Below are positions 37,014 to 56,660 of a DNA stretch of 64,000 nucleotides, piece after piece. Position numbers and translations under genes: made by a program. Position 1 is the first letter of the stretch. Each line of letters begins with the position of its first letter. Source of the DNA: Candidatus Versatilivorator sp. (lineage in GTDB: Bacteria > Acidobacteriota > Terriglobia > Versatilivoradales > Versatilivoraceae). Location: the NCBI GenBank assembly GCA_965207735.1, contig OZ242296.1:2368001-2432000 (forward strand), given 5' to 3'. Under the pieces are notes generated by a model. That model searched no databases. It worked only from the letters and a program-made list of their open reading frames with translations, and had not been told where the DNA came from.

Positions 37014-37244
37014 TCTGAGTGTACGACACCGTCCCCTCGGTTGAGTAATGGAAAACTACCAAGCACAGCCGGAAACGGATAGGGTATTGCATGGCGTTTC
37101 TTCACCAGACTTGCGTGAGTCGGCGAAGCATTGACTCCAGTTGAAACGCGAGATAAACCCCCGATTGATTCAGGGTGACGAAGGACAGCATCGTTTTTGG
37201 CCGCGGGATGTCTCGTGGATGCTCCATGTGATGGGAAGCGCTCG

Positions 37245-40200
37245 ATGAAAAAACTTCACCGCTCCGATACGGAAGAACCGGCACCCAACCCATCGCCCCA
37301 CCGCTCAAGAACCGCCATCTCGCGTCACCGGAGAGGGCTTAATCGGGTCTGGACCACACTGCTGGTGTTGACTCTACCGACCACTGCGGCCGCACAAGGA
37401 ATCTGTGACCGCACTCCGGAAGTGCAGAACGTGCTGATGAACGTCACCGGGGTGAGACCCTGTGGCGAAGTGACAGCAAGGCATCTGAGCGTTGTGAGAA
37501 CGCTCTCGATTTCAGCCAGTGGCCGGTTAAGTCTCCAAGCGCACGACTTCGAAGGGCTCACTGGCCTGAAAACGTTAGCGTTTGGGGGCCCCTCCGTGAG
37601 CCTTCCTCGGGGGGTCTTGGACGCACTGGCCGGCTTGGAGTCTCTTTACCTGAACTTTGGGAACGTCGAGACACGCCGCTGGCCGGAGGGGATCTTCCAG
37701 GGACTAGGCCAACTGAAACGCCTGGAATTGTCTCTCAGACATCCAGGCAACTTACCGGCTGGTGTATTCGACGGACTCGGCAGCCTGGAGTATTTGGATC
37801 TGAATTTCAATCATCAGGCCAGCTTACCGGCTGGCGTGTTCGTCGGACTCGGCGGCCTGAAGCACCTTGATCTGTCCCACAACTACCTGACGGGTTTACC
37901 GGTGGGGATCTTCCGAGACCTCGGCAGCTTGGTTACCCTGAACCTGTCTTCAAATCAGTTGACCTACTTGTCGGAGGGAATTTTTGACGGACTCGTGAGC
38001 CTGGAAAATCTGAACCTGTCGACAAACTCTCTGATCGGCTTATCCGCGAAGGTCTTCGACGGTCTCAGCAGCCTCAAGGGATTGGGCCTTCACTTCACTG
38101 ACCTGACTCGTCTACCGGAGGGAATCTTCGACGATGTGCTCGATACCCTGGGCGGCCCCTACACGTTTGCCGGATCAACCGGTGAAGGACAACTTCGGTT
38201 GGATCAGCGATTGTGGTCTACTCTTGCCTTCCCTTGGACCGAGCAGATCGTTTCCGCAGGAGAGGCCGTCAAGGTAACTGTCGTCTTGAGCCGGCCCTTG
38301 CCGGTGGCCGTTCGCGTCCCTTACGCCCTGGGAGGGACTGCGCCCTTGGAAGCCTACACGGATCTGTCGCCTTCTCCCTCCCACGGACTGCTGTTTCTGG
38401 CCGGAGAGACCCGCAAGGAAATAACTTTCACCCTCCAGCAGCGTGCCAGGCCGGGTGACACGATAGTCTTCACCCTGGGTAAGGAAATCAGACTGCGTCG
38501 CTCCGACGGCACAGGACCCGAAACTTTCTTGCTGGGAGGTATGTTCTATCTTCGAGATACCGCACACACCGTCTCTGTGGACAAGCCAGTTCAACCGGGT
38601 GTCTGCGACCGCACGCCCGAAGTTCGGGACCAGTTGATGCAGATTGCCGGGGTGTCGAACTGCAAGGAAGTGGCTGCTACGCATCTAGCTGGAGTGACAG
38701 AACTGAATCTCAGGCAATCCCATGTCGGCAGCCTCCTGACCCACGACTTCAGGGGACTTGTCAACCTCGAAAATTTAAGCCTGGCTTACTGCTCCCTGGC
38801 CAACCTCCCAAAGGGGGTTTTCGATGGGCTGAGCAATCTGAAACGACTGGAACTGGAGGCGAACCAACTGATCTATCTGCCGGAGGGGTCTTTCGACGGG
38901 CTCGGTAACCTGGAGTATCTAAACTTGTGGCAAAACGATTTGACGCACTTACCGGAGCGGATCTTCGACGGGCTCAGTAGCCTGAAATGGCTGGGGTTGC
39001 GTGAAAACCAACTGAGCCGCCTGCCGGAGGGAACCTTCGACGAGGTCCTGGATACCCTGGGCGGCCCTTACGCTTTCAGTGGAGAAACCTTTCAAGGCGA
39101 CCTCGTCCTGGAGCCTGCCCTGAAGGCCACCCTGAACTTCTCGTCCGATGAGCAGGTAGTCTCCGAAGAAGACACCGTCACGGTGACGGTTGTTTTGGGC
39201 AAGCCATTGCCCGTCGCCGTTCGCGCCCCTTATGCCGTTAGCGGGAGCGAGGCATCTGAACTATTCACGGACCTGTCGCCCTCGCCCTCCGACGGGCTGC
39301 TGTTTCCGGCGGGGGAAACCCACCGGGAAATCACTCTGGCACTCAATAAGACCGCCCGTCAGCCCGGCGCCATAGTCCTGACCTTGGGAGGACTCTCCGA
39401 GATCGAACTGCTTCGGTCCGACGGAACGGGAGCCGAGGCTCCCTACCTGGAGAGCGGGGTGCTGATCGACGACGCATTCGAAGGAAGTACACATACAGTC
39501 ATTGTGACCGCTCCGGCCGCTCAAGGAATCTGCAACCGGTCTCCGCAAGTGCGCGACCACCTGTTATTGAACACCGGTATTTCAGGGGTGTCGAACTGCT
39601 GGGAAGTCACCGCGGCACATCTGGCCGGGGTGAGAGGCCTGACTTTTTCCTCATTCAGCGGCATCACGGAGTTCCAATCGGATGACTTCAGGGGGCTCAG
39701 CGGCCTGATCGAGCTGTCGCTGCAAGAAATTCCACTGACGAGTCTACCGGTGGGGATCTTCGACGAATTGATCAGTCTGAAGAAACTGAATCTGTTTCGT
39801 AACTCCCTGACGAGTTTGCCGGAAGGGATCTTCGACAGCCTCGTCAGCCTGGAATACCTGGACCTGGCCGGCAACTCTCTGACCGGTCTACCCGAGGGGG
39901 TCTTCGACCGACTCGGACGTGTGAAAGAATTGAAACTGAATGGCAACCCTCTGACGAGCTTACCGGTGAGGATTTTTAGCGGACTCGGCAGTCTGGAGTA
40001 TCTTGGCCTGAATGAAACCTTTCTGACCAGCCTTTCGGACGGGATTTTCGACGGATTGAGCCGCCTGGAATCTCTGGATCTGTGGACAAACTCCCTGACA
40101 GCCTTACCGGTCGGCATCTTCGAAGAGTTGAGCAATCTGAAAACAATACAACTGGTGAACGGTCCCCTGACACACCTACCCGCACGCATTTTCGAAGGGC

Positions 40201-43200
40201 TGAATCGCCTGGAATTTCTAAACCTGGCACACAACTCCTTGATGAACTTACCTGAGGGGGTCTTCAGCGGGCTGAGCAGCCTGGAGCATCTGGACCTTTC
40301 CGGCAACTCCCTAACCAACTTGCGGAAACGAATCTTCGGCGAACTCACTGAACTGAAACGGCTGAACCTGACTCGCACCTCCCTGACCGATTTACCCGAA
40401 GGCGTTTTCGACGACGTGCTCGATACGTTGGGCAGGCCTTACCGGTTCGGCAGACAAGACAATCAGGGAGGTCTACTGTTGGACCCCGACCTGCAGGCCA
40501 CACTTGCCTTCCTATGGCCCGAGCAGACGGCCATGGCAGGAGACGAGGTCAGTGTGACTGTGTCCTTGACCCGTCCATTGCCGGTCTCGCTTCGCGTCCC
40601 CTATACATTGCATGTAGCCGGCGGCAGCGGGGCGACCGACACCATGACCGAGCTGTCTCCCTCGCCGCCCGACCAGTTGCTGATTCCAGCCGGAGAAACC
40701 CGCGGCGATATCACTTTGACCCTCGAGGGGAACATCAGGCCGGGCGACACCGTCGTTTTGAGCCTGGGCGAACTCACCGAAATCGGACTGCGCCGATCCG
40801 ACGGCGAGGGGAGCGACGCTCCCTATCTGTGGACCGCAGCTCTGCTGCGCATGCCGATTACAAGAGGTCCACATTTGGTCATCCTGGCCAGCGCGGCCGC
40901 GCAGGGAGGCTGCGACCGAACAGAGCCCGTCCGTGACAGGCTGATGGAGATTGCCGGAGTTGCGGACTGCGAAGAAGTCACTGCACAGCATCTGGCCGGC
41001 GTGAGAGAGCTGGACCTGACCCGAGCCGGCATCAGCAAACTCCACTCTCGCGACTTCCACGGCCTGGTCAATCTCGAACATCTGAACCTCAACGGAAACT
41101 CCTTGGCCCTATTCCCGAAGGGGATCTTTGATGAGCTGCGTCGTCTGGAGTCCCTGAACCTGTCCGGCAATCCCCTGGAATCCTTGCCGGAGGAGCTTTT
41201 CCGCGGGCTCGGCAGCCTGAAAGTGCTGACAATTTCCCAGGAAGTCCATCCCAATCGCCTATTGACCCACTTGCCGGAACGTCTCCTAGCGGGACTCGGG
41301 AGCCTGCAGATTCTGGACCTGTCTCGCAATGCCCTGAAACGATTGCCGGAGCAGATCTTCAAAGGGCTCGCCAAGCTGGAATATCTGGATCTTTCCGGTA
41401 ATGTCCTGGCTGACTTGCCAGCGGGAATCTTCAGAGGGCTCAGCCAAATGAAACACCTCGACCTGTCTGGCAACCAGTCAAGTAGGCACGTTCTGAACCG
41501 CCTGCCGAAGGGAATCTTCGACGACCCGCTCGAAACCCTGGGCGGTCCTTACAGGCTGGATGGAGAGATCCATCAGGGACAACTCCGCTCAAGCCTGAGG
41601 ACCACGCTCGATTTCGCTGCCTCCGGACAGACAGCACGGCAGGGGGGCGTCGTCAAAGCCGCGGTCACCTTGAACCGGGTGTTGCCGGTGGCCGTCCGCG
41701 TTCCTTATTCCATCGGCGGCACGGCGACGGCTGACGCCTACACCGGCCTTTCGCCTTCGCCCTCCGACGGCTTGCTCTTTCCCGCGGGAGAGGTAAGACG
41801 CGACATCGTCTTCACTCTCTTGAAGGACACCCCCAGCCAAGGGGAAACCATCACGTTGACTCTTGCCAAGCCCGCTCAAGTCCGGCTGCGTCCTTCCGAG
41901 GGGACAGGGATTGACGCTCCCTATCTGGGCTTGGATACCTTTACGCACCCCGACCGTATCGACGAAAAACCCACCCATGTCGTCACTATTTCCGAGGCGG
42001 GCTCGGGTGACCCGGATCAAGGGCGGGCCCTGTTTGTCCCGGTCATTCTGACCGCGGCCGGACGCAACAACTCCTTCTTTACCTCGGAACTGACCGTGAC
42101 CAACCGGGGTTCCGAGCCGGCACTCCTCAACTACAGCTACACGGCGGATGCAGGCGGGGGAAGCGGCACGGCCACCGACAGGCTCGACGCAGGTCGGCAG
42201 AAGATCGAGATCGACGCCATCGACTATCTCAGGAGGCTGGGGATTCCCATTCCCGCAACCGGCAATCGGATCGGGACTCTGAGAGTGGACGTGTCGGGGT
42301 CTTTCGGAGTGGGAGTCATGGCCAGGACCGCCACCGCCGTACCCGAGGGCCGCGCCGGACTGGCCTATCCGGGGGTTCCGGGGGAGGAGGGGTTCCAGCA
42401 AGCAGTCTATTTGTGCGGCCTCAGGCAGAACAGCCGCGACCGTTCCAACGTGGCCTTCCAGCACATGGGGGCTCCGGGAGAGGGGGCGATCACGCTGCGG
42501 ACGACGGTGTATTCGGGGGAGGCATCCGACGCCAGCCCCCGGGTGCTTGAAGATGTCAGGCTCGAGCCGGGAGGGTTCCACCAGTACTCGGGCCTGCTGG
42601 GCAGGGTGGAGAACGGCTACGTGAGGGTGGAGCGGGTGGAGGGAGAGGCGCCCTTCTACGCCTACGGAGTGATCAACGACCAGGTGAACTCGGACGGGTC
42701 GTTCATCTTTCCGGTGACGGCCGGATCCCTGGAGGGGAAGACGAGTCAGACTTTGCCGGTCATCGTGGAGACCAGCGAGTTCAGGAGCGAGCTGACGGTG
42801 ACGAACTTCTCGGAGGAGCCCCGGACCCTGGATTTCGAGTTTGTGGGCGAGCAAGTCGGGACCAACGACAGGACGGCTGCCTTCAGCATGGAGTTGGAAT
42901 CCGGCCAGCAGGAGATCGTCCCCGAGGTTGTAGAGGAGCTGCGGCGCCAGGGAGTGGCGGGGCTGGGGGCGACCCGGGGTTTCTACGCGGGTCCGGTGTT
43001 CGTCACGGCGGAAGAGGGAGACCTGAGCGGGATCGTGATCGGAGCCAGGACAGGTTCAAAAGGCGGTGGTGGGCAATACAGCGTCTTCTACAACGCGGTG
43101 CCGGACGGTGAGGCATTCGCCCAAGAGGCCTGGGTGGAGGGGCTGCAGCAGAACGAGGAGAACCGGAGCAACCTGGCGCTGGTCAACACGGGAGAAGTGG

Positions 43201-43469
43201 ACAACAGCGACAGCATCTTTCATCTGGAGATCTTCGACGGAGAGACGGGGATGCTGGTGGAGACGGTGGTGACCAGGCCGATCCCGGCCCGGAGCTGGCA
43301 TCAGATCAACGGGATCCTGGGCAGAGCTTCTCCGGAGACCAGCCAGGGGTATGTCCGGATCGAGAAGGTGTCGGGTGCCAACCCGTTCCTGGCCTACGGG
43401 GTGGTCAACGACGGCGGGGCTCCGGGAGAGAGAAGCGGCGACGGAGCCTATATCCCGGCCCGCGAATAG
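37245..43469 (+). CDS. Giant modular leucine-rich repeat surface protein with Calx-beta-like spacers and duplicated C-terminal beta domain
   Basis: Four modules start GxC[DN]R[TS] (37398, 38598, 39525, 40905), each with 24-aa LRRs (LxxLPxGIFDGLxxLxxLxL); signal ends AAA-Q; start may be 37197. Confidence 0.9.
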   Translation: MKKLHRSDTEEPAPNPSPHRSRTAISRHRRGLNRVWTTLLVLTLPTTAAAQGICDRTPEVQNVLMNVTGVRPCGEVTARHLSVVRTLSISASGRLSLQAHDFEGLTGLKTLAFGGPSVSLPRGVLDALAGLESLYLNFGNVETRRWPEGIFQGLGQLKRLELSLRHPGNLPAGVFDGLGSLEYLDLNFNHQASLPAGVFVGLGGLKHLDLSHNYLTGLPVGIFRDLGSLVTLNLSSNQLTYLSEGIFDGLVSLENLNLSTNSLIGLSAKVFDGLSSLKGLGLHFTDLTRLPEGIFDDVLDTLGGPYTFAGSTGEGQLRLDQRLWSTLAFPWTEQIVSAGEAVKVTVVLSRPLPVAVRVPYALGGTAPLEAYTDLSPSPSHGLLFLAGETRKEITFTLQQRARPGDTIVFTLGKEIRLRRSDGTGPETFLLGGMFYLRDTAHTVSVDKPVQPGVCDRTPEVRDQLMQIAGVSNCKEVAATHLAGVTELNLRQSHVGSLLTHDFRGLVNLENLSLAYCSLANLPKGVFDGLSNLKRLELEANQLIYLPEGSFDGLGNLEYLNLWQNDLTHLPERIFDGLSSLKWLGLRENQLSRLPEGTFDEVLDTLGGPYAFSGETFQGDLVLEPALKATLNFSSDEQVVSEEDTVTVTVVLGKPLPVAVRAPYAVSGSEASELFTDLSPSPSDGLLFPAGETHREITLALNKTARQPGAIVLTLGGLSEIELLRSDGTGAEAPYLESGVLIDDAFEGSTHTVIVTAPAAQGICNRSPQVRDHLLLNTGISGVSNCWEVTAAHLAGVRGLTFSSFSGITEFQSDDFRGLSGLIELSLQEIPLTSLPVGIFDELISLKKLNLFRNSLTSLPEGIFDSLVSLEYLDLAGNSLTGLPEGVFDRLGRVKELKLNGNPLTSLPVRIFSGLGSLEYLGLNETFLTSLSDGIFDGLSRLESLDLWTNSLTALPVGIFEELSNLKTIQLVNGPLTHLPARIFEGLNRLEFLNLAHNSLMNLPEGVFSGLSSLEHLDLSGNSLTNLRKRIFGELTELKRLNLTRTSLTDLPEGVFDDVLDTLGRPYRFGRQDNQGGLLLDPDLQATLAFLWPEQTAMAGDEVSVTVSLTRPLPVSLRVPYTLHVAGGSGATDTMTELSPSPPDQLLIPAGETRGDITLTLEGNIRPGDTVVLSLGELTEIGLRRSDGEGSDAPYLWTAALLRMPITRGPHLVILASAAAQGGCDRTEPVRDRLMEIAGVADCEEVTAQHLAGVRELDLTRAGISKLHSRDFHGLVNLEHLNLNGNSLALFPKGIFDELRRLESLNLSGNPLESLPEELFRGLGSLKVLTISQEVHPNRLLTHLPERLLAGLGSLQILDLSRNALKRLPEQIFKGLAKLEYLDLSGNVLADLPAGIFRGLSQMKHLDLSGNQSSRHVLNRLPKGIFDDPLETLGGPYRLDGEIHQGQLRSSLRTTLDFAASGQTARQGGVVKAAVTLNRVLPVAVRVPYSIGGTATADAYTGLSPSPSDGLLFPAGEVRRDIVFTLLKDTPSQGETITLTLAKPAQVRLRPSEGTGIDAPYLGLDTFTHPDRIDEKPTHVVTISEAGSGDPDQGRALFVPVILTAAGRNNSFFTSELTVTNRGSEPALLNYSYTADAGGGSGTATDRLDAGRQKIEIDAIDYLRRLGIPIPATGNRIGTLRVDVSGSFGVGVMARTATAVPEGRAGLAYPGVPGEEGFQQAVYLCGLRQNSRDRSNVAFQHMGAPGEGAITLRTTVYSGEASDASPRVLEDVRLEPGGFHQYSGLLGRVENGYVRVERVEGEAPFYAYGVINDQVNSDGSFIFPVTAGSLEGKTSQTLPVIVETSEFRSELTVTNFSEEPRTLDFEFVGEQVGTNDRTAAFSMELESGQQEIVPEVVEELRRQGVAGLGATRGFYAGPVFVTAEEGDLSGIVIGARTGSKGGGGQYSVFYNAVPDGEAFAQEAWVEGLQQNEENRSNLALVNTGEVDNSDSIFHLEIFDGETGMLVETVVTRPIPARSWHQINGILGRASPETSQGYVRIEKVSGANPFLAYGVVNDGGAPGERSGDGAYIPARE

Positions 43470-50398: not shown

Positions 50399-50792
50399 CT
50401 GCGATATTGGTCAAGTCGGATTCCAGGTCTTTCCTGGCGGAAGCGACCTGGTTCTGCAGTTCGTCTCTGGTGGACTGGACGAGCCCTTGCGCCTCCTGAC
50501 GCCCCTTGGCCAGGATGTCGGATCTCTGCTTCAGAGCTTCAGAGCGAAGGGTCTCTTGTTGGCGGTAGATCTCCAGGCGGGCAGCGTTCAAATGGTCTTG
50601 ATAAATGCGAGACTTCTCCTCGAATTCGCCAATCTTTTCATTGGCTTTTCGCTGCGCACCATGAATCGCCGCGTCCCGATCCTCTAAAATCTTGTTGATG
50701 GGGTTGAAAAATGATCGTTTTAAGATGAAATAGAGGGACAAGACCAGCAGAATAACCACGACCACGGACAGATCTGGCTGCACCAATTCCAT
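50370..50792 (-). CDS. ATP synthase F0 subunit b'
   Basis: N-terminal transmembrane segment, FFNPI..ILEDR, coiled coil. Confidence 0.88.
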   Translation of the reverse strand: MELVQPDLSVVVVILLVLSLYFILKRSFFNPINKILEDRDAAIHGAQRKANEKIGEFEEKSRIYQDHLNAARLEIYRQQETLRSEALKQRSDILAKGRQEAQGLVQSTRDELQNQVASARKDLESDLTNIADGIVKAILR

Positions 50793-50892
50793 AGTTCAGC
50801 GATTCGCAACCCCTGCCCGGCAACCGCCGGGGGCATACTAGATCCCGAGCTCCTTTTTCGACTGCCACCACCAGCCCAAAAAGCATGAGAAA

Positions 50893-50919
50893 ATTATCAC
50901 AAGTAGGCGTTGCGGTCAA
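50893..50919 (-). promoter_or_regulatory. Putative atp promoter
   Basis: TTGACC and extended -10 TGTGATAAT on the minus strand (short 15-bp spacer). Confidence 0.45.
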
Positions 50920-50989
50920 GGTCTGTTTTGCCTCAAACCATCGCCGCTAAAGAGCATAGGAGACACCCCGCCCCGGTGCCGGAGGCCCC

Positions 50990-51382
50990 GTGAAACACAC
51001 CGTCGAAGTCGCTGCCGCCGTCCTCTTCCGGCAGGGGCGCCTGCTCATCACCCAGAGGCTGCCGGACTCCCATCTTTCGGGGCTGTGGGAGCTTCCCGGC
51101 GGCAAGCGCAAGCCCGGGGAATCCATCCGGGAATGCCTGGTCCGGGAGATTCGGGAGGAACTCGACATTCGGGTGGTCGTAGGGGAGCTGTTTGAAACCA
51201 TCCAATACGAATATCCCGAGAAAACCGTTTGCCTGAAATTCTTCCGGTGCCGGTACGAGGGTGGAAACATCCGGGCCTTGGGGTGTCAACGTTTCGAATG
51301 GGTAAGGCCCGATGAGCTCGGGAACTACCGCTTTCCTCCCGCCAACAAATCTCTCATGAAGAAGCTCAGGTCGAATGGCTGA
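50990..51382 (+). CDS. mutT: MutT/NudG-like NUDIX hydrolase
   Basis: WELPGGK..PGES..ECL.REIREEL Nudix box, FPPAN. Confidence 0.85.
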   Translation: MKHTVEVAAAVLFRQGRLLITQRLPDSHLSGLWELPGGKRKPGESIRECLVREIREELDIRVVVGELFETIQYEYPEKTVCLKFFRCRYEGGNIRALGCQRFEWVRPDELGNYRFPPANKSLMKKLRSNG

Positions 51383-51408
51383 GACGAGAGACGGCCCCCA
51401 CTAAACTA

Positions 51409-51441
51409 TTGACAATCCAATGTTAGTTGGCGGATACTAAC
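51409..51441 (+). promoter_or_regulatory. Promoter with overlapping inverted repeat upstream of the TonB-like gene
   Basis: TTGACA-18 bp-GATACT; GTTAGT-N8-ACTAAC at 51422-51441. Confidence 0.55.
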
Positions 51442-51470
51442 GTGTTGGGCAGTAGTGTGCGCGGAAACGA

Positions 51471-54431
51471 GTGGCCTTGAAACCGAACTTCAGAAACCTC
51501 AGTCGATCTCGAATGCGGACTCCGGGAACCCTTCTCACCCTGGCTGTCCTGTGCCTGGCCTCTTTCCCGCCGGCCGGTCTTGGGGAGGAGAAGAAGGCCG
51601 CGGGGCAACCTGCCGCGTCAACAGCCTCTCCAGGGGCCATTGCCGGCCTGGGCCCCATCGTGCCCGCAGGGGCCCCGTCTCCGCCACCAGCCGTTCCAGT
51701 CGAACTGCGGAAGGCAATCCGGGAATACCGCGCCCAGATCCAACGCATCACATTGGACTATCCCGGCGGGGAAACCGGTGATGGTTCGCGACGCTTCTCC
51801 CGGGACTATCGCGGCAACGTCTACGAGTATTTTCGCAACGATGCGCTGGACGCCCTGCCCCACGAAGTCCGGCAGGCCAATGGAACCAAGTCCGTCTTGC
51901 GCCGAAATCAGTTCGGTTTCAACTTGACCGGACCGGTCACGTTTCCACGACTCTACGACGGCCGGGGACGGACCTTCTTCTCAATCGCCTACGAGGGCAC
52001 GCGGGAAAAGATCTCCCGGCCCTATTTGGGAGACGTTCCCACGCCGCTGCAGCGTTCGGGAGACTTTTCCGACCTGGTGGACAACGCCGGACGCCCGGTC
52101 CTGATCTACGATCCGGCCACGACCCGGTCCAACCCCGACTACGATCCGGGACAACCGGTGTCCCTGTCCAATCTCCAGTACCTGCGCGATCCCTTTCCGG
52201 GGAACCGCATACCGGCCCACCGGCTTGACCCGGTCGCCCTGAAGGCCCTGGCCTATTATCCCCACCCCAACACCAGCGTCGGCCCGTTCCTGCGCAACAA
52301 TTTCTTCGCCAACGCGACCGAAACCAACACGCCCAACGGAACGGTGTGGAAGCTTGACCACGATATCGGAACCAGGCACAAGCTCACCTGGAACGGCCGC
52401 TTCTCGAGCGGCATCGACGGCTCGGCCCCGATTTTCGCCAACCCCGCCAACCCGGGCAGCCCCCAGCGACATGTCGGTTCCAGGAGTGGAAGGTTCAGCC
52501 ACACCTTCAGCGTCTCTCCCCGGGTCGTCAACCAGTTCTCCATGTGGGCGCAGCATCGTTCCCTGGCCAGCACCCAAGAAAATCTCTACCGGACTCATTT
52601 TCCGGAACAGCTGGGGATCAGCGGGCTGGAAAGCGGCGCCTTTCCCCGATTTGATCTGGGCCACTTTGTCGATATCGGCACCCGACCCGGGGCTATGGCC
52701 CGTTACCGGATTGCGAACTATTCCGTGTCTGACGCAATCAGCCTGCGCTACAACAAACACAACCTGAAGCTGCACGGCAAGATGTACCGGCGACAGGTGA
52801 ACAGCTTCCGCTCCCGATACCCCTCGGGCCGATTCGACTTCTCCGGCGAACTGACGGGACTGCCGGGCGTCAACAACACGGGAAGCCCCGCCGCACAGTT
52901 CCTGCTGGGAATGCCCAACGGCGCCCAGCAGTCGATGGTGTTGCACCCCACCTACTTGCGGTCGGAGCAGTACGAAGTGGGAGTCAGTGACGAATATCAG
53001 ATCACTCCCAAGCTGACCTGGACGTTTCGACTGAACTTGGAACTTGACACGGCGCCGCGCGAAAAATTCGGCCGGCAGTCCAGCCTGGACTTCGAGGGTC
53101 TGAACCCCGAGAACGGGCTTCCCGGGATCCTCGTTTTCGCGGGTCGGGATGGGCAGCCCAGAACTTTTAGCCCCAACCGACTCAACTGGGAACCTGGAGT
53201 GGCCGTAGCGGTGAGCCCTTGGGGGGACCGCAGGACGGTCATTCGCGCCAACTATGGGCTCTTTTCCGATTCCCTTCCACTGCGGGCGAGCCACCTGGGC
53301 AGCGTGGGGTTCAATGCCACGCCGCAGCTCACTTCCCCCAACCGCCAGTTGGAGCCGGTATTGCTGCTCCGGCAAGGTTTCCCTCGGGTGGCCAACCCGC
53401 CGGACCTCACTTCGACTGCCGCCAACCACCTGGATGCCGCATACTTCGAGCCCCATACCGAAATGCCCGACGTCCACGAGTGGCGGCTGGAAGTCGAGAG
53501 AGACTTCTCCGACTTCGCGGTGCGGGTGGCTTACATCGGGGAACGCGGGACTCATCTCCTTATGGGTAACGACGTGAATCTCAACCCGCTCGCCCCTTCT
53601 GCCTTGGAGTTCCGAGACCGGTTGAACGACCTGGAGTTCAACCAGTCGCTGCGACCCTTTCCCCAGTTTCGCCGCATCGCCCACGGGTACGGCTACCCTG
53701 CCGGATCAAACTCCTTCCATCGTGGGTTACTCCGTGTCGACAAGCGACTTTCCAGGGGCTTGAGCTTCACCGGCTCTTATGCCTATTCCAAGGCCATCGA
53801 CAACGTGCTGAGAGGCAAGCCCCCCCAGAATTCAACCAACCTGCAAGCCGAAAAGTCGCTTTCCTCTTACGACAGAACGCACCGCTTGAGAGCCAGCTAT
53901 CTCTACGAGCTTCCCTTCGGCGAAGGCCACCGTTTCTCCAGCTCCCGCAATTGGATCAACGCCCTGGGGCGTGGGTGGACCATGAGCGGCATGAGCATCT
54001 TCCAGAGCGGCACCCCGATTCGTTTGAGACCCCTTTTCAACAACACCGGCGGAGTGGCTGAATCCCTGAGGGTCAATCTGGTTCCCGGGGTCGATCCCCA
54101 CCTGGAGAATCGCTCGGCTTTCCGATGGTTCAATCCTGCAGCTTTCGAACAACCCGAAGACTTCACCCTGGGAGATGGGCCGCGCTTTCATCCAACCTTG
54201 CGCAATCCCAACTCCTGGAACATCGACATGTCCCTGAGCAAGCGGGTGCCGGTGAGCGAGTACTGGACGTTGGAGTTGATCGGCGAGGCCTTCAATGCTC
54301 TCAACCACGCCAACCTCAACCGGCCCGACGCCTTCATCGGATCCCGCGAAAACCCCAACAGCAACGCGGGCAGGATAATTGGCTCCCGAGGCGGGCGCAT
54401 CGTCCAGCTTGGGCTCCGATTGAGCTTTTAG
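51471..54431 (+). CDS. Oar/TonB-dependent-receptor-like outer-membrane barrel apparently lacking plug and N-terminal domains
   Basis: YEYFRNDALDA, RRNQFGFNLTGP, IYDPAT..RDPFPGNRIP, EAFNALNHANL, terminal RIVQLGLRLSF; only about 100 aa precede the first barrel motif. Confidence 0.82.
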   Translation: MALKPNFRNLSRSRMRTPGTLLTLAVLCLASFPPAGLGEEKKAAGQPAASTASPGAIAGLGPIVPAGAPSPPPAVPVELRKAIREYRAQIQRITLDYPGGETGDGSRRFSRDYRGNVYEYFRNDALDALPHEVRQANGTKSVLRRNQFGFNLTGPVTFPRLYDGRGRTFFSIAYEGTREKISRPYLGDVPTPLQRSGDFSDLVDNAGRPVLIYDPATTRSNPDYDPGQPVSLSNLQYLRDPFPGNRIPAHRLDPVALKALAYYPHPNTSVGPFLRNNFFANATETNTPNGTVWKLDHDIGTRHKLTWNGRFSSGIDGSAPIFANPANPGSPQRHVGSRSGRFSHTFSVSPRVVNQFSMWAQHRSLASTQENLYRTHFPEQLGISGLESGAFPRFDLGHFVDIGTRPGAMARYRIANYSVSDAISLRYNKHNLKLHGKMYRRQVNSFRSRYPSGRFDFSGELTGLPGVNNTGSPAAQFLLGMPNGAQQSMVLHPTYLRSEQYEVGVSDEYQITPKLTWTFRLNLELDTAPREKFGRQSSLDFEGLNPENGLPGILVFAGRDGQPRTFSPNRLNWEPGVAVAVSPWGDRRTVIRANYGLFSDSLPLRASHLGSVGFNATPQLTSPNRQLEPVLLLRQGFPRVANPPDLTSTAANHLDAAYFEPHTEMPDVHEWRLEVERDFSDFAVRVAYIGERGTHLLMGNDVNLNPLAPSALEFRDRLNDLEFNQSLRPFPQFRRIAHGYGYPAGSNSFHRGLLRVDKRLSRGLSFTGSYAYSKAIDNVLRGKPPQNSTNLQAEKSLSSYDRTHRLRASYLYELPFGEGHRFSSSRNWINALGRGWTMSGMSIFQSGTPIRLRPLFNNTGGVAESLRVNLVPGVDPHLENRSAFRWFNPAAFEQPEDFTLGDGPRFHPTLRNPNSWNIDMSLSKRVPVSEYWTLELIGEAFNALNHANLNRPDAFIGSRENPNSNAGRIIGSRGGRIVQLGLRLSF

Positions 54432-54511
54432 TGACCTGTTTCAACCGCAGCTACGCCGCTCTCCCCTGAACCACAACGCTGTTAATGACGAACACTCCTC
54501 TACGGTATGCT

Positions 54512-54562
54512 CAGCGACCTGGCGAGAAATGCGGGTCAAACCCCTATTTCTCACCAGGTCGC
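54512..54562. mobile_element. Two MITE family A right ends back to back
   Basis: cagcgacctggcgagaaatgcggg...atttctcaccaggtcgc. Confidence 0.75.
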
Positions 54563-54571
54563 CTGTTTCAA

Positions 54572-55570
54572 GTGGTTTCCGGCGGTATTCCGTCAGTCAA
54601 ATGGCCGGCGGTCCTGGGTCTGTGGCTGTTGCTGTCTCCCTCCGGACTGCTTGCCGAAAGGACTCCCGCAACCGGCGGAGTTCGCTTTTGTGTTCCCTTC
54701 TGGGTGTTGAAGGACGGAGCACCGGTCCGGCCCCGGATCGGGCGCGGGGACCTTTCCATCTTCGCCGGCCCGAAGCCTTTGCAAATTACCCGGCAGGAGC
54801 AACCCGGCACCCCGACCTTTCTCTTTCTGGCCTTCGACCTGGTTGAAGACCAAGCTCCCATCAACACCGCCAAGCAGGCGCTGGCCGAAGAGGTCCGCAA
54901 GTTGGGACCGGAGTACTGGGTGGGGCTCATCGGGGTTCAGGAAACTCTCTCGGTGATCCAGGATCCCACCAAGGACAAGCCGCTCCTGTTGAAGAAAATC
55001 CTGCAAATCCGTCAGTTCGGCAAGGCCGGCCTTCTTGAATCCATCCAGGCGCTGGCCGATTTCTCCTCGTCCCTGATGCGCAAAAGCAGCGTCCGGGTGG
55101 CCGTCATTCTGGTGACCGACAGCGATGTGGCCAACTACCGGACTGAATACCGCAATCCCCAGATCAACCGCAGCGACAGCAGAGATCTCAGCCGCCGCTT
55201 CCCGGGTCGGGCGCTGCAGCAGGAAATCTCTCGCCTGTCGACGGCCATGGTACGTTTTCCCATCCCCCTGCTGGTGGTCCACGTGGCTCCCGGGCGAGAC
55301 TCGCTCAACCGCACCTACCAGGATGGCCTGGGGCAGGTGACCGGCGCCGTCGGAGGCCGGCTGTTCCTTTCCAAGTCAACCGGGGACATCCCCCGTACCC
55401 TCCAGGAAGCCTTTGAGTGGGCGGACAGTTTCTATGCCGTGGAATTCGAAGTTTCCCCGAGGCCGAGCGGCCTTTTCGAGATCGAGGCCAAGCCGGGCGC
55501 GGCTCTTTCCCCAAGCATGCGGTTGAGTCATCCGGCCCGGCTTTTCTTTCCCTCCGAAGCTCAGCCCTGA
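54572..55570 (+). CDS. Exported VWA-like domain protein with degenerate MIDAS (start uncertain; ORF opens at 54485)
   Basis: Signal-like segment, LFLAFDLVED, VIQDPT, VILVTDSD, GGRLF, FYAVEF. Confidence 0.72.
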   Translation: MVSGGIPSVKWPAVLGLWLLLSPSGLLAERTPATGGVRFCVPFWVLKDGAPVRPRIGRGDLSIFAGPKPLQITRQEQPGTPTFLFLAFDLVEDQAPINTAKQALAEEVRKLGPEYWVGLIGVQETLSVIQDPTKDKPLLLKKILQIRQFGKAGLLESIQALADFSSSLMRKSSVRVAVILVTDSDVANYRTEYRNPQINRSDSRDLSRRFPGRALQQEISRLSTAMVRFPIPLLVVHVAPGRDSLNRTYQDGLGQVTGAVGGRLFLSKSTGDIPRTLQEAFEWADSFYAVEFEVSPRPSGLFEIEAKPGAALSPSMRLSHPARLFFPSEAQP

Positions 55571-55713
55571 CGCAACAAGTCCGGGCCTCATACCTGTTTA
55601 GCCACGGGTAGCGTTTGGCTCACAACGGCCTTGGGGATTGTGCTACACTCAAGGTATCTAAGAGTCCCCTTCGGGATGTCTGACAATACCCTTCGGGAGG
55701 AGGTGGCAAAGGA

Positions 55714-56034
55714 ATGGCAGAAGGCACAGACCGCGGTTCAAGGCTGGCTTACTTTTTGGTTGGCGGCGGCATCGGGGCTATCGTCGCCCTGCTGTTTGCG
55801 CCTCGCACCGGCCAGGAAACGCGGGACATCATCGCTCAGCGGACGGCCGACAGCCGGGAACGGGTCACCTCGGCAACCCGCATGACTTCCGAGAAGGTGT
55901 CCGACTACCTGGACAAGGGCCTTGAAAAAGGCAAGGAAACCGTCAGCAGCCAAAAAGACCAGATTTCCGCGGCCATCGCGGCCGGCAAGCAGGCCTATCA
56001 GGAAGAAAAAGGCAAGTCCGAGGTAGAATCCTAG
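55714..56034 (+). CDS. YtxH-domain protein
   Basis: FLVGGGIGAIVALLFAPRTGQETR; GGAGG upstream; extended -10 TGCTACACT near 55641. Confidence 0.9.
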   Translation: MAEGTDRGSRLAYFLVGGGIGAIVALLFAPRTGQETRDIIAQRTADSRERVTSATRMTSEKVSDYLDKGLEKGKETVSSQKDQISAAIAAGKQAYQEEKGKSEVES

Positions 56035-56123
56035 CAGCTCTCGGCTAGCCACAGGCAGGGGGCCACGGATCCGGCACTCGGCCCCGCTCGCCGGACCGCA
56101 TCGTCAACTCTCGGAGAAACAGC

Positions 56124-56660
56124 GTGCAGAATCTAGTGGGCGAAAATCTGGAAAACCTGGTCGGTGTGCTACTGATCCTGGTGGTGGTCTTCATCTTCCT
56201 TCAACTGGGGACCATGGTCATGCTCCTGGCCGCGGTACGCAAGATGGGCGGGAACCTCGATCGGATGCGGGACCTGGTGGAGCAACAGGGAGCGCCGGCC
56301 ATCAAGGAACTTCGCGAAGTTCTTGGAGAAGTCAAGGACATTTTGCGAGGCGCCCGGGCAGCCACCGAGAATCTGACGGGAGCCACGGAAGCGGTGCGGA
56401 GCCAGATCCGGGACGTCAACTCGGTCATCGAGGAGACCACCAATCGGGCCCGCCAGCAGATTTCCAGGGCCGACGAAGTAGTCACCCACGCCATCAAGAG
56501 AATGGAAGCCACCTCGCAGCTTGTTCAGGAAAGCATCCTCACTCCCATAGGGGAGCTTTCGGCACTGATTCGTGGGCTGTCGAGCGGGCTCAACGCCCTG
56601 TTCGGACGCAAGCGCAACCCGGTGAATGAAGTCCACCAGGATGAGGAAATGTTCATCTGA
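56124..56660 (+). CDS. Membrane-anchored coiled-coil protein (DUF948/YoxC-like)
   Basis: N-terminal transmembrane helix plus heptad region; adjacent to YtxH gene; ends DEEMFI. Confidence 0.7.
   Translation: MQNLVGENLENLVGVLLILVVVFIFLQLGTMVMLLAAVRKMGGNLDRMRDLVEQQGAPAIKELREVLGEVKDILRGARAATENLTGATEAVRSQIRDVNSVIEETTNRARQQISRADEVVTHAIKRMEATSQLVQESILTPIGELSALIRGLSSGLNALFGRKRNPVNEVHQDEEMFI

Follow-up and report, generated by a model that had tools for sequence, protein, structure and literature searches.

The 64,000-nucleotide stretch of contig OZ242296.1 analyzed here (the window; Candidatus Versatilivorator sp., Acidobacteriota) carries two co-directional open reading frames (ORFs), 51471-54431 (+, 986 amino acids from a GTG at 51471, or 972 from an ATG at 51513) and 54485-55570 (+), flanked by MutT-like and YtxH-like genes and beside the ATP synthase operon. 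The first encodes an outer-membrane barrel of the Oar type that has been stripped of most of its plug; the second encodes an exported VWA-like protein, and the two had been singled out by an earlier note, made from the sequence, as a plug-less receptor-like barrel and its possible partner. Unless stated otherwise, residue numbers refer to the 972-residue form of the barrel and, for the VWA protein, to the frame from 54599.

The barrel itself is whole, and the earlier note was right in describing it as intact to a terminal Phe. PF25183 (OMP_b-brl_4) is the sole Pfam family of the 986-residue protein, matched over residues 111-979 and profile positions 7-838 of 838 (E 1.8e-167, 560 bits), and an AlphaFold2 model based on a 117-sequence alignment has a mean pLDDT (the model's per-residue confidence score) of 86.6 and 22 membrane strands, as counted from its strand list. 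This TonB-receptor-type β-barrel occupies 51801-54428 (+). Fold searches with the model place it among the TonB-dependent receptors: the best Foldseek match is YddB (6ofr, E 3.6e-20), the protein-binding receptors TbpA and FusA are also among the top matches, and VIA-align superposes it on PirA (5fp2) with Z 24.8 and a root-mean-square deviation of 3.7 over 423 aligned positions. (VIA-align also overlaps model residues from 24 on with the plugs of solved receptors; this overlap is not used, because pLDDT is below 30 there and the ranges are end points only.) A PDB sequence search with the barrel profile yields no match, and the matches in the ESM Atlas are to Acidobacteriota clusters only.

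A plug and a TonB box define TonB-dependent transporters, and the extent to which the plug leaves the barrel is still argued. In the present protein about 70 residues, half of them disordered in the model, separate the signal peptide from strand 1, and structure prediction of the barrel alone yields no full plug: upstream of strand 1 there is only a disordered linker and one helix (residues 63-81, pLDDT 62-73). The signal peptide (recognized by inspection) and the unconserved, Ala/Pro/Ser-rich linker that follows it are encoded by 51471-51695 (+; pLDDT <50, dN/dS, the ratio of non-synonymous to synonymous substitution, 0.99 and 0.52). A Pfam scan of the 986-residue protein finds neither Plug (PF07715) nor CarboxypepD_reg (PF13620) at E<=1. 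Absence of the former is weak proof of plug loss, and was dropped as such, because most Oar-type plugs of this genome escape PF07715. The evidence used is the length of the N-terminus together with a custom Oar-plug profile built from 13 canonical paralogs of this genome, in which the barrel begins at residue 229-296. In the plug-stripped family (244 barrel homologs found, 120 listed, 119 scorable and one without the motif), strand 1 is preceded by 23-192 residues (median 101) in all 119 scorable homologs; identity to the query reaches down to about 40%, in homologs of several sources that share the same architecture. The custom profile, which is positive on six unrelated canonical receptors in the fetched loci and was later positive on two more, gives no match better than E 0.6 to the 120 family homologs. 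PF13620 has no match in the query and four scanned homologs (canonical controls score 77 and 74 bits), nor is the barrel gene among the 49 PF13620 matches in the genome. A crude TonB-box-like pattern is present in 0 of 119 family N-termini, as against 7 of the 13 canonical paralogs.

The plug-stripped barrels form a single clade (SH-aLRT 100) among plug-bearing ones, in trees whose outgroups are drawn from this genome and a few loci only, the first tree being a quick version. Pairwise counts pooled over 10 and 9 close orthologues give dN/dS values of 0.17 (barrel), 0.10 (helix), 0.06 (the segment from strand 1 to strand 2, or loop 1) and 0.14 (VWA gene), which signifies purifying selection on all of them. 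The short N-terminus throughout the family, the single clade and the purifying selection together establish that plug loss is an old and maintained internal deletion, not damage; orthologues with a full N-terminus are not seen among the 119. Among the 14,935 ORFs of at least 100 amino acids in this complete genome, none encodes a plug on its own: all 16 proteins matched by the plug profile have at least 788 residues, and all 18 PF07715 matches fall in frames of at least 762. As a separate observation, four Oar-like paralogs (G000:C1, at 3787951, 3838327, 1823423 and 5123124) constitute a clade with shorter, divergent plugs; it is nearest to the plug-stripped family in one tree (96) and unresolved in the other.

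The loss is not total. Between the linker and strand 1 (51696-51800, +) lies an amphipathic helix (A-I-x-E-Y/F-R-x-Q) followed by a Gly/Ser/Arg spacer, and the family version of the helix motif, A-I/L/V-x-E-F/Y-R-x-Q, aligns on the last conserved plug motif of plugged receptors, A-I/V-x-E-F-x-V. Profile-profile comparison of the helix with this C-terminal plug motif gives P=0.0011 over 18 columns, at a modest probability of 21%. When a matrix made from the helix is run over 14 canonical plugs, its top-scoring site is the plug motif in 10, and in 6 of these at most 3 of 300 shuffles score as high. The helix motif is 28-36 residues from strand 1 in 117 homologs, compared with 36 in the four canonical receptors measured. 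Judged by profile match, spacing and conservation, the helix is a conserved remnant of the C-terminal motif of the plug, of which about 35 residues are kept; the deletion would have taken about three quarters of the plug, roughly 90 residues, together with the extension and the TonB box. (What this means for the earlier description is that the short N-terminus and the lack of a full plug stand, as do the Pro/Ala linker and the short helix; the helix is a plug remnant, so that "plug-less" is somewhat too strong.)

The VWA gene most likely starts at a GTG at 54572 and extends to 55570 (+): the resulting 332 residues are the length of most close homologs, while a start at 54485 would cross a dispersed repeat. 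In the model, a VWA core is set in a β-sandwich (pLDDT 88.2), with Foldseek matches to ArnAB (8s05, E 3.7e-11), ITIH1, Sec23/24 and integrin β; a PDB sequence search with the VWA profile finds Sec23 only, at E 0.056. The protein scores 23.2 bits (E 4e-5) with TIGR03436, against a cut-off of 81.25, and is not among the 16 TIGR03436 matches in the genome. An intact metal ion-dependent adhesion site (MIDAS) is defined by DxSxS, T and D. At the DxSxS position this protein has DLVED (54836-54850, +; D-x-V-x-D/E in the family), just as the earlier note read it, and the site is degenerate across 103 aligned homologs: both aspartates are invariant (103/103), Val takes the first Ser position in 102 and D/E the second in 97, and Ala replaces the Thr in 102. 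A metal site of a non-canonical kind may still be present. After β-4 of the core comes a 28-residue loop (residues 174-201; 55118-55204, +), which has 10 invariant columns in 103 sequences and is the best-conserved part of the core, yet has its lowest pLDDT (65-68). Its strict spacing pattern is matched by 142 of 159 spanning ORFs, and 11 of the misses are full-length point variants. A signal peptide and the absence of a lipobox (a lipobox-like pattern is found in 4 of 120 VWA homologs) point to a soluble exported protein, probably periplasmic.

The two genes are stably linked. Of the 29 genomes with a barrel orthologue, 28 have the VWA gene behind the barrel gene, and the same order is seen in 74 of 80 genome loci (a set that overlaps the 29 genomes); the exceptions are one contig edge, one weak unrelated match and four related Blastocatellia loci in which the gene has moved. 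Metagenome loci show the VWA gene behind the barrel in 65 of 80, with 14 too short to tell and one without it. Conversely, five genomes in which the VWA locus shows no barrel were tested, and all five carry a barrel orthologue at another site. In an even sample of 301 genomes of the phylum, 5 have the barrel gene and the same 5 have the VWA gene; a larger sample adds two genomes, both with the pair (7/401). Related loci belong to Terriglobia (the closest being Candidatus Versatilivorator), Blastocatellia and Bryobacterales. Because kin are not independent, these counts speak for stability of the linkage and not for many origins. Both genes are co-retained under purifying selection, and the layout suggests that they are co-transcribed. 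Neighboring genes (here those for ATP synthase, the MutT-like protein and ribosomal proteins) differ by lineage: no third gene is conserved beside the pair across lineages, nor is a catabolic or binding-protein gene, nor a SusD-like one. Mutual information across 103 gene pairs (effective number of sequences, Neff, 52) is dominated by phylogeny. An apparent covariation of the helix with strand 1 was discarded, having disappeared in mean-field direct coupling analysis of 214 barrels (Neff 81), where only 5 of the top 60 pairs join adjacent strands; alignments of this depth are too shallow for covariation to be informative.

Some loci depart from the simple arrangement. One genome has two tandem plug-stripped barrels, a contig break and one VWA gene with a variant loop (L271:5357-11737 and L272:1-1294, G394). 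In six loci (L119, L124, L129, L130, L132 and L134) an exported protein of 235-260 amino acids, which resembles a small outer-membrane barrel and may be DUF2490-like, is encoded on the opposite strand between the barrel and VWA genes; in L123 and L136 that position is held by what is presumably a small antitoxin/ParE-like pair.

VWA relatives, surveyed within the genome samples, include four weaker matches in two genomes (G072 and G087) that combine a degenerate MIDAS with the first half of the loop. These form a sister clade with 100/100 support against the 16 ordinary VWA matches of this genome, and all four lack the last 17 residues of the loop in the alignment. Two of the four genes come immediately after that of an intact Oar-type receptor, which has both extension and plug, in an operon with the order GWxTD gene, plugged receptor, MIDAS-degenerate VWA gene (L232:4152-10142 in G072, where Pfam confirms the GWxTD gene, and L234:2525-7116 in G087). 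This operon looks like the plugged counterpart of the plug-stripped pair. Because receptors that keep their plug also have such a partner, the VWA protein did not originate as a replacement for the plug; since the sisters beside plugged receptors are without the 17 loop residues, plug loss coincides with loop gain. (A different close pair, in which the gene of an 867-residue CarboxypepD_reg receptor is immediately preceded by an ordinary TIGR03436 VWA gene, lies at L230, G000:C1:567412-571542, -, and is the only one of its kind among 14 VWA positions checked.)

From the observed architecture, conservation and coupling of the pair we infer a location, a contact and a mode of gating. The reading that is preferred, with a probability of about 0.4, is that the barrel forms a pore independent of TonB, which the VWA loop and the plug vestige stopper in trans, the VWA protein acting from the periplasm. 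What remains after the old internal deletion is a signal peptide and a flexible linker, some 35 residues of the plug and the complete barrel. Because it has no TonB box, the barrel would not be energized in the usual way, and TonB-ExbBD-driven transport would be absent. The VWA protein, soluble in the periplasm, would dock on the barrel; as its core would be too big for the 35-40 Å lumen, only the 28-residue loop would enter, folding on binding, beside the leftover plug helix. The channel would then open by movement or release of the partner, in the manner of LptE/LptD or the SprA Plug. Plugging in trans by the VWA protein had been one of several suggestions of the earlier note, and the coincidence of loop gain with plug loss lends it indirect support. 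In the accessible text of PMC6434023, an engineered Oar without plug and extension did not accumulate, and Oar variants without the plug were unstable or inactive, which suggests that the natural version needs a filler. A bare ungated pore, also suggested earlier, is less likely because the plug vestige is under purifying selection. For a protein-export channel, the third suggestion of the earlier note, the data speak neither for nor against. A more far-reaching proposal, to be held more tentatively still, is that the receptor ceded its gate to the neighboring gene, its plug shrinking to a remnant as a metal-free VWA protein acquired a lumen-filling loop; the pair would then represent an undescribed class of trans-gated, TonB-independent channel, and a sister lineage would preserve a plugged operon resembling the ancestor.

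Several observations weigh against a stopper in trans. The pairing of VWA protein and barrel exists with plugged receptors, and an empty lumen is therefore not required for it. The correlation of plug loss with loop gain comes from one lineage and 2 genomes (2 of 10 in that class), and the barrel tree leaves the sister receptors unresolved as closest relatives of the plug-stripped barrel. The VWA orthologue is in two frames, through either sequencing error or decay, behind an intact barrel in two cases (G001:C1:4625767-4626724 and G021:C524:3732-4669), and the VWA gene is not found in G010, a genome that is 93% complete and in which the barrel match ends at residue 769. Fusions of barrel and VWA protein, in what is a weak test, are absent at E<=1e-10 among 7,994 longer-protein candidates. 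Finally, Bacteroides transporters that lack plug and lid are viable and need no stopper to function, according to the available part of 10.1101/2025.11.13.688124.

That these transporters work without a filler keeps alive the strongest rival, a self-gated passive channel in which vestige and long extracellular loops narrow the pore so that a small solute passes by facilitated diffusion, as in the Type S transporters of Bacteroides, and the VWA protein is an accessory periplasmic receiver or chaperone outside the lumen. The strong conservation of helix and loop 1 (dN/dS 0.10 and 0.06) fits such a channel, as does the occurrence of VWA sisters beside plugged receptors, and in the same source, as far as it is accessible, natural plug-reduced transporters import short fructans and plug deletion raised the affinity for small sugars. 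It is nonetheless rather unlikely: about 20 ordered residues would seem too few for a lumen built for about 125, no catabolic or binding-protein gene is conserved near the pair across lineages, and the invariant VWA loop that is specific to the family is left unexplained. Less likely again is an export pore with a surface lid, that is, a barrel that exports the VWA protein, which then stays on the outer face, much as Oar exports PopC. Operons of a barrel plus its cargo are familiar from two-partner and type 11 secretion, and the strict one-to-one gene pair, the protein-binding receptors TbpA and FusA among the Foldseek matches and a conserved loop that could serve as targeting or anchoring signal are all compatible with this arrangement. 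Oar itself secretes a protein, but that secretion requires its plug and TonB box (both statements from the accessible text of PMC6434023). The VWA protein, moreover, has no lipobox-like motif in 116 of 120 homologs and is single-copy and slow-evolving (dN/dS 0.14), which would be unusual for surface cargo.

A slightly fainter prospect than export is a non-transporting scaffold or sensor, the barrel merely anchoring the VWA protein at the outer membrane within the exported VWA/GWxTD set of Acidobacteria. The housekeeping-like conserved promoter and single copy, the 16 TIGR03436 VWA matches in the genome, the GWxTD gene-receptor-VWA gene order of the sister operon and the poor conservation of many lumen-facing barrel positions would all be in keeping with it, but the pair is scattered over the phylum (7 of 401 genomes), which speaks against a core role in the envelope, and all 22 strands and the large loops are retained. 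A split receptor, in which extension, TonB box and plug come from a gene elsewhere and the VWA protein is an ordinary accessory, is highly improbable. The plug and barrel of FhuA can reportedly be reconstituted from separate chains (a report that the literature search did not recover), but this complete genome has plug matches only in long proteins and no stand-alone plug ORF, and the pair has no third conserved neighbor. A recent deletion, pseudogene or misassembly is refuted by the 119 homologs, the purifying selection and the conserved promoter; nothing was found in its favor.

Comparison with known systems sets the pair apart at several points. With the Oar subclass (Myxococcus xanthus Oar, PF25183) the barrel shares family, 22 strands, signal peptide and terminal Phe, as well as a remnant of the C-terminal plug motif that is spaced from strand 1 as in canonical receptors; it lacks the CarboxypepD_reg extension, the TonB box and most of the ~125-residue plug, and has a fixed VWA partner in addition. 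To judge by its sequence, it descends from the Oar subclass and is not a member of it, because three defining features (extension, full plug, TonB box) are missing. The partner resembles the acidobacterial TIGR03436 proteins in being exported, in having a VWA core in a β-sandwich and in its weak match (E 4e-5), and differs from them in falling below the cut-off (23 against 81 bits), in forming its own clade (100/100), in replacement of Ser, Ser and Thr of the MIDAS and in its 28-residue loop. The plugged operon of G072 and G087 likewise has a VWA gene, of the sister clade, just after that of an Oar-type barrel, and its product shares the degenerate MIDAS and the first half of the loop; there the receptor keeps extension and plug, the VWA protein is without 17 loop residues, and a GWxTD gene lies upstream.

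LptE sits in LptD and the Plug protein in SprA, so that in both cases a barrel is closed by a separate protein. The likeness to the present pair is in proposed action only: contact has been shown there and is predicted from genes here, and the barrels or partners are unrelated. SusD is a surface lipoprotein lid over the plugged, TonB-driven SusC barrel (PMC7782687, accessible text). The partner described here has a VWA fold and is not a surface lipoprotein of the SusD type, a lipobox-like pattern being present in only 4 of 120 homologs. A natural parallel in plug reduction is provided by the Type S fructan transporters of Bacteroides, TonB-receptor-type barrels with a small plug-like remnant undetected by Pfam and no SusD lid. 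As described in the available part of 10.1101/2025.11.13.688124, whose supplementary tables cover Bacteroidota by their legends, these are proteins of about 770 amino acids encoded beside glycoside hydrolases in a carbohydrate-active enzyme cluster, without a partner protein; the present family has Oar-type barrels of 920-1080 amino acids with long loops, no conserved enzyme neighbor and a dedicated VWA partner. No description of the barrel-VWA pair was found in the literature searched (a search that mostly leaves out subscription journals), and none is mentioned in the accessible portions of a SusCD paper (PMC7782687) and a review (PMC11658791).

Upstream of the barrel gene is a σ70-type promoter, TTGACA-18-GATACT (51409-51438, +; 10 of 12 consensus positions). 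One such pattern is found where 0.8 would be expected by chance, yet all of the 11 close relatives aligned have the same TTGACA and ATACT, despite differing upstream DNA. The claim that the gene has its own TTGACA promoter thus holds for the core elements; the inverted repeat attributed to it (6-bp arms, 51422-51427 and 51436-51441, read from the sequence) is probably due to chance, because both arms are kept in only 2 of the 11. Between the two genes lies a REP-like (repetitive extragenic palindrome-like) hairpin with 23-nt arms (54514-54562), which has 35 blastn matches in the genome, self matches included, is missing from the intergenic DNA of most relatives and is outside the system. In this region the strong GGAGG ribosome site that precedes the VWA start of relatives is missing here. 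Rfam gives no match within 50700-56200. Elsewhere in the window, 37197-43469 (+) encodes an exported-looking protein of 2,090 amino acids in which leucine-rich-repeat blocks alternate with repeated β-rich units ahead of a distinct C-terminal region.

A natural barrel that has long been without plug and TonB box, and that has a fixed partner, should show what seals such a pore without TonB, and the barrel-VWA pair is a ready two-protein system in which to test this. The literature searched contains no paper on the roles of acidobacterial exported VWA proteins; stoppering in trans, if true, would be the first concrete job for one of the many that Acidobacteria possess.

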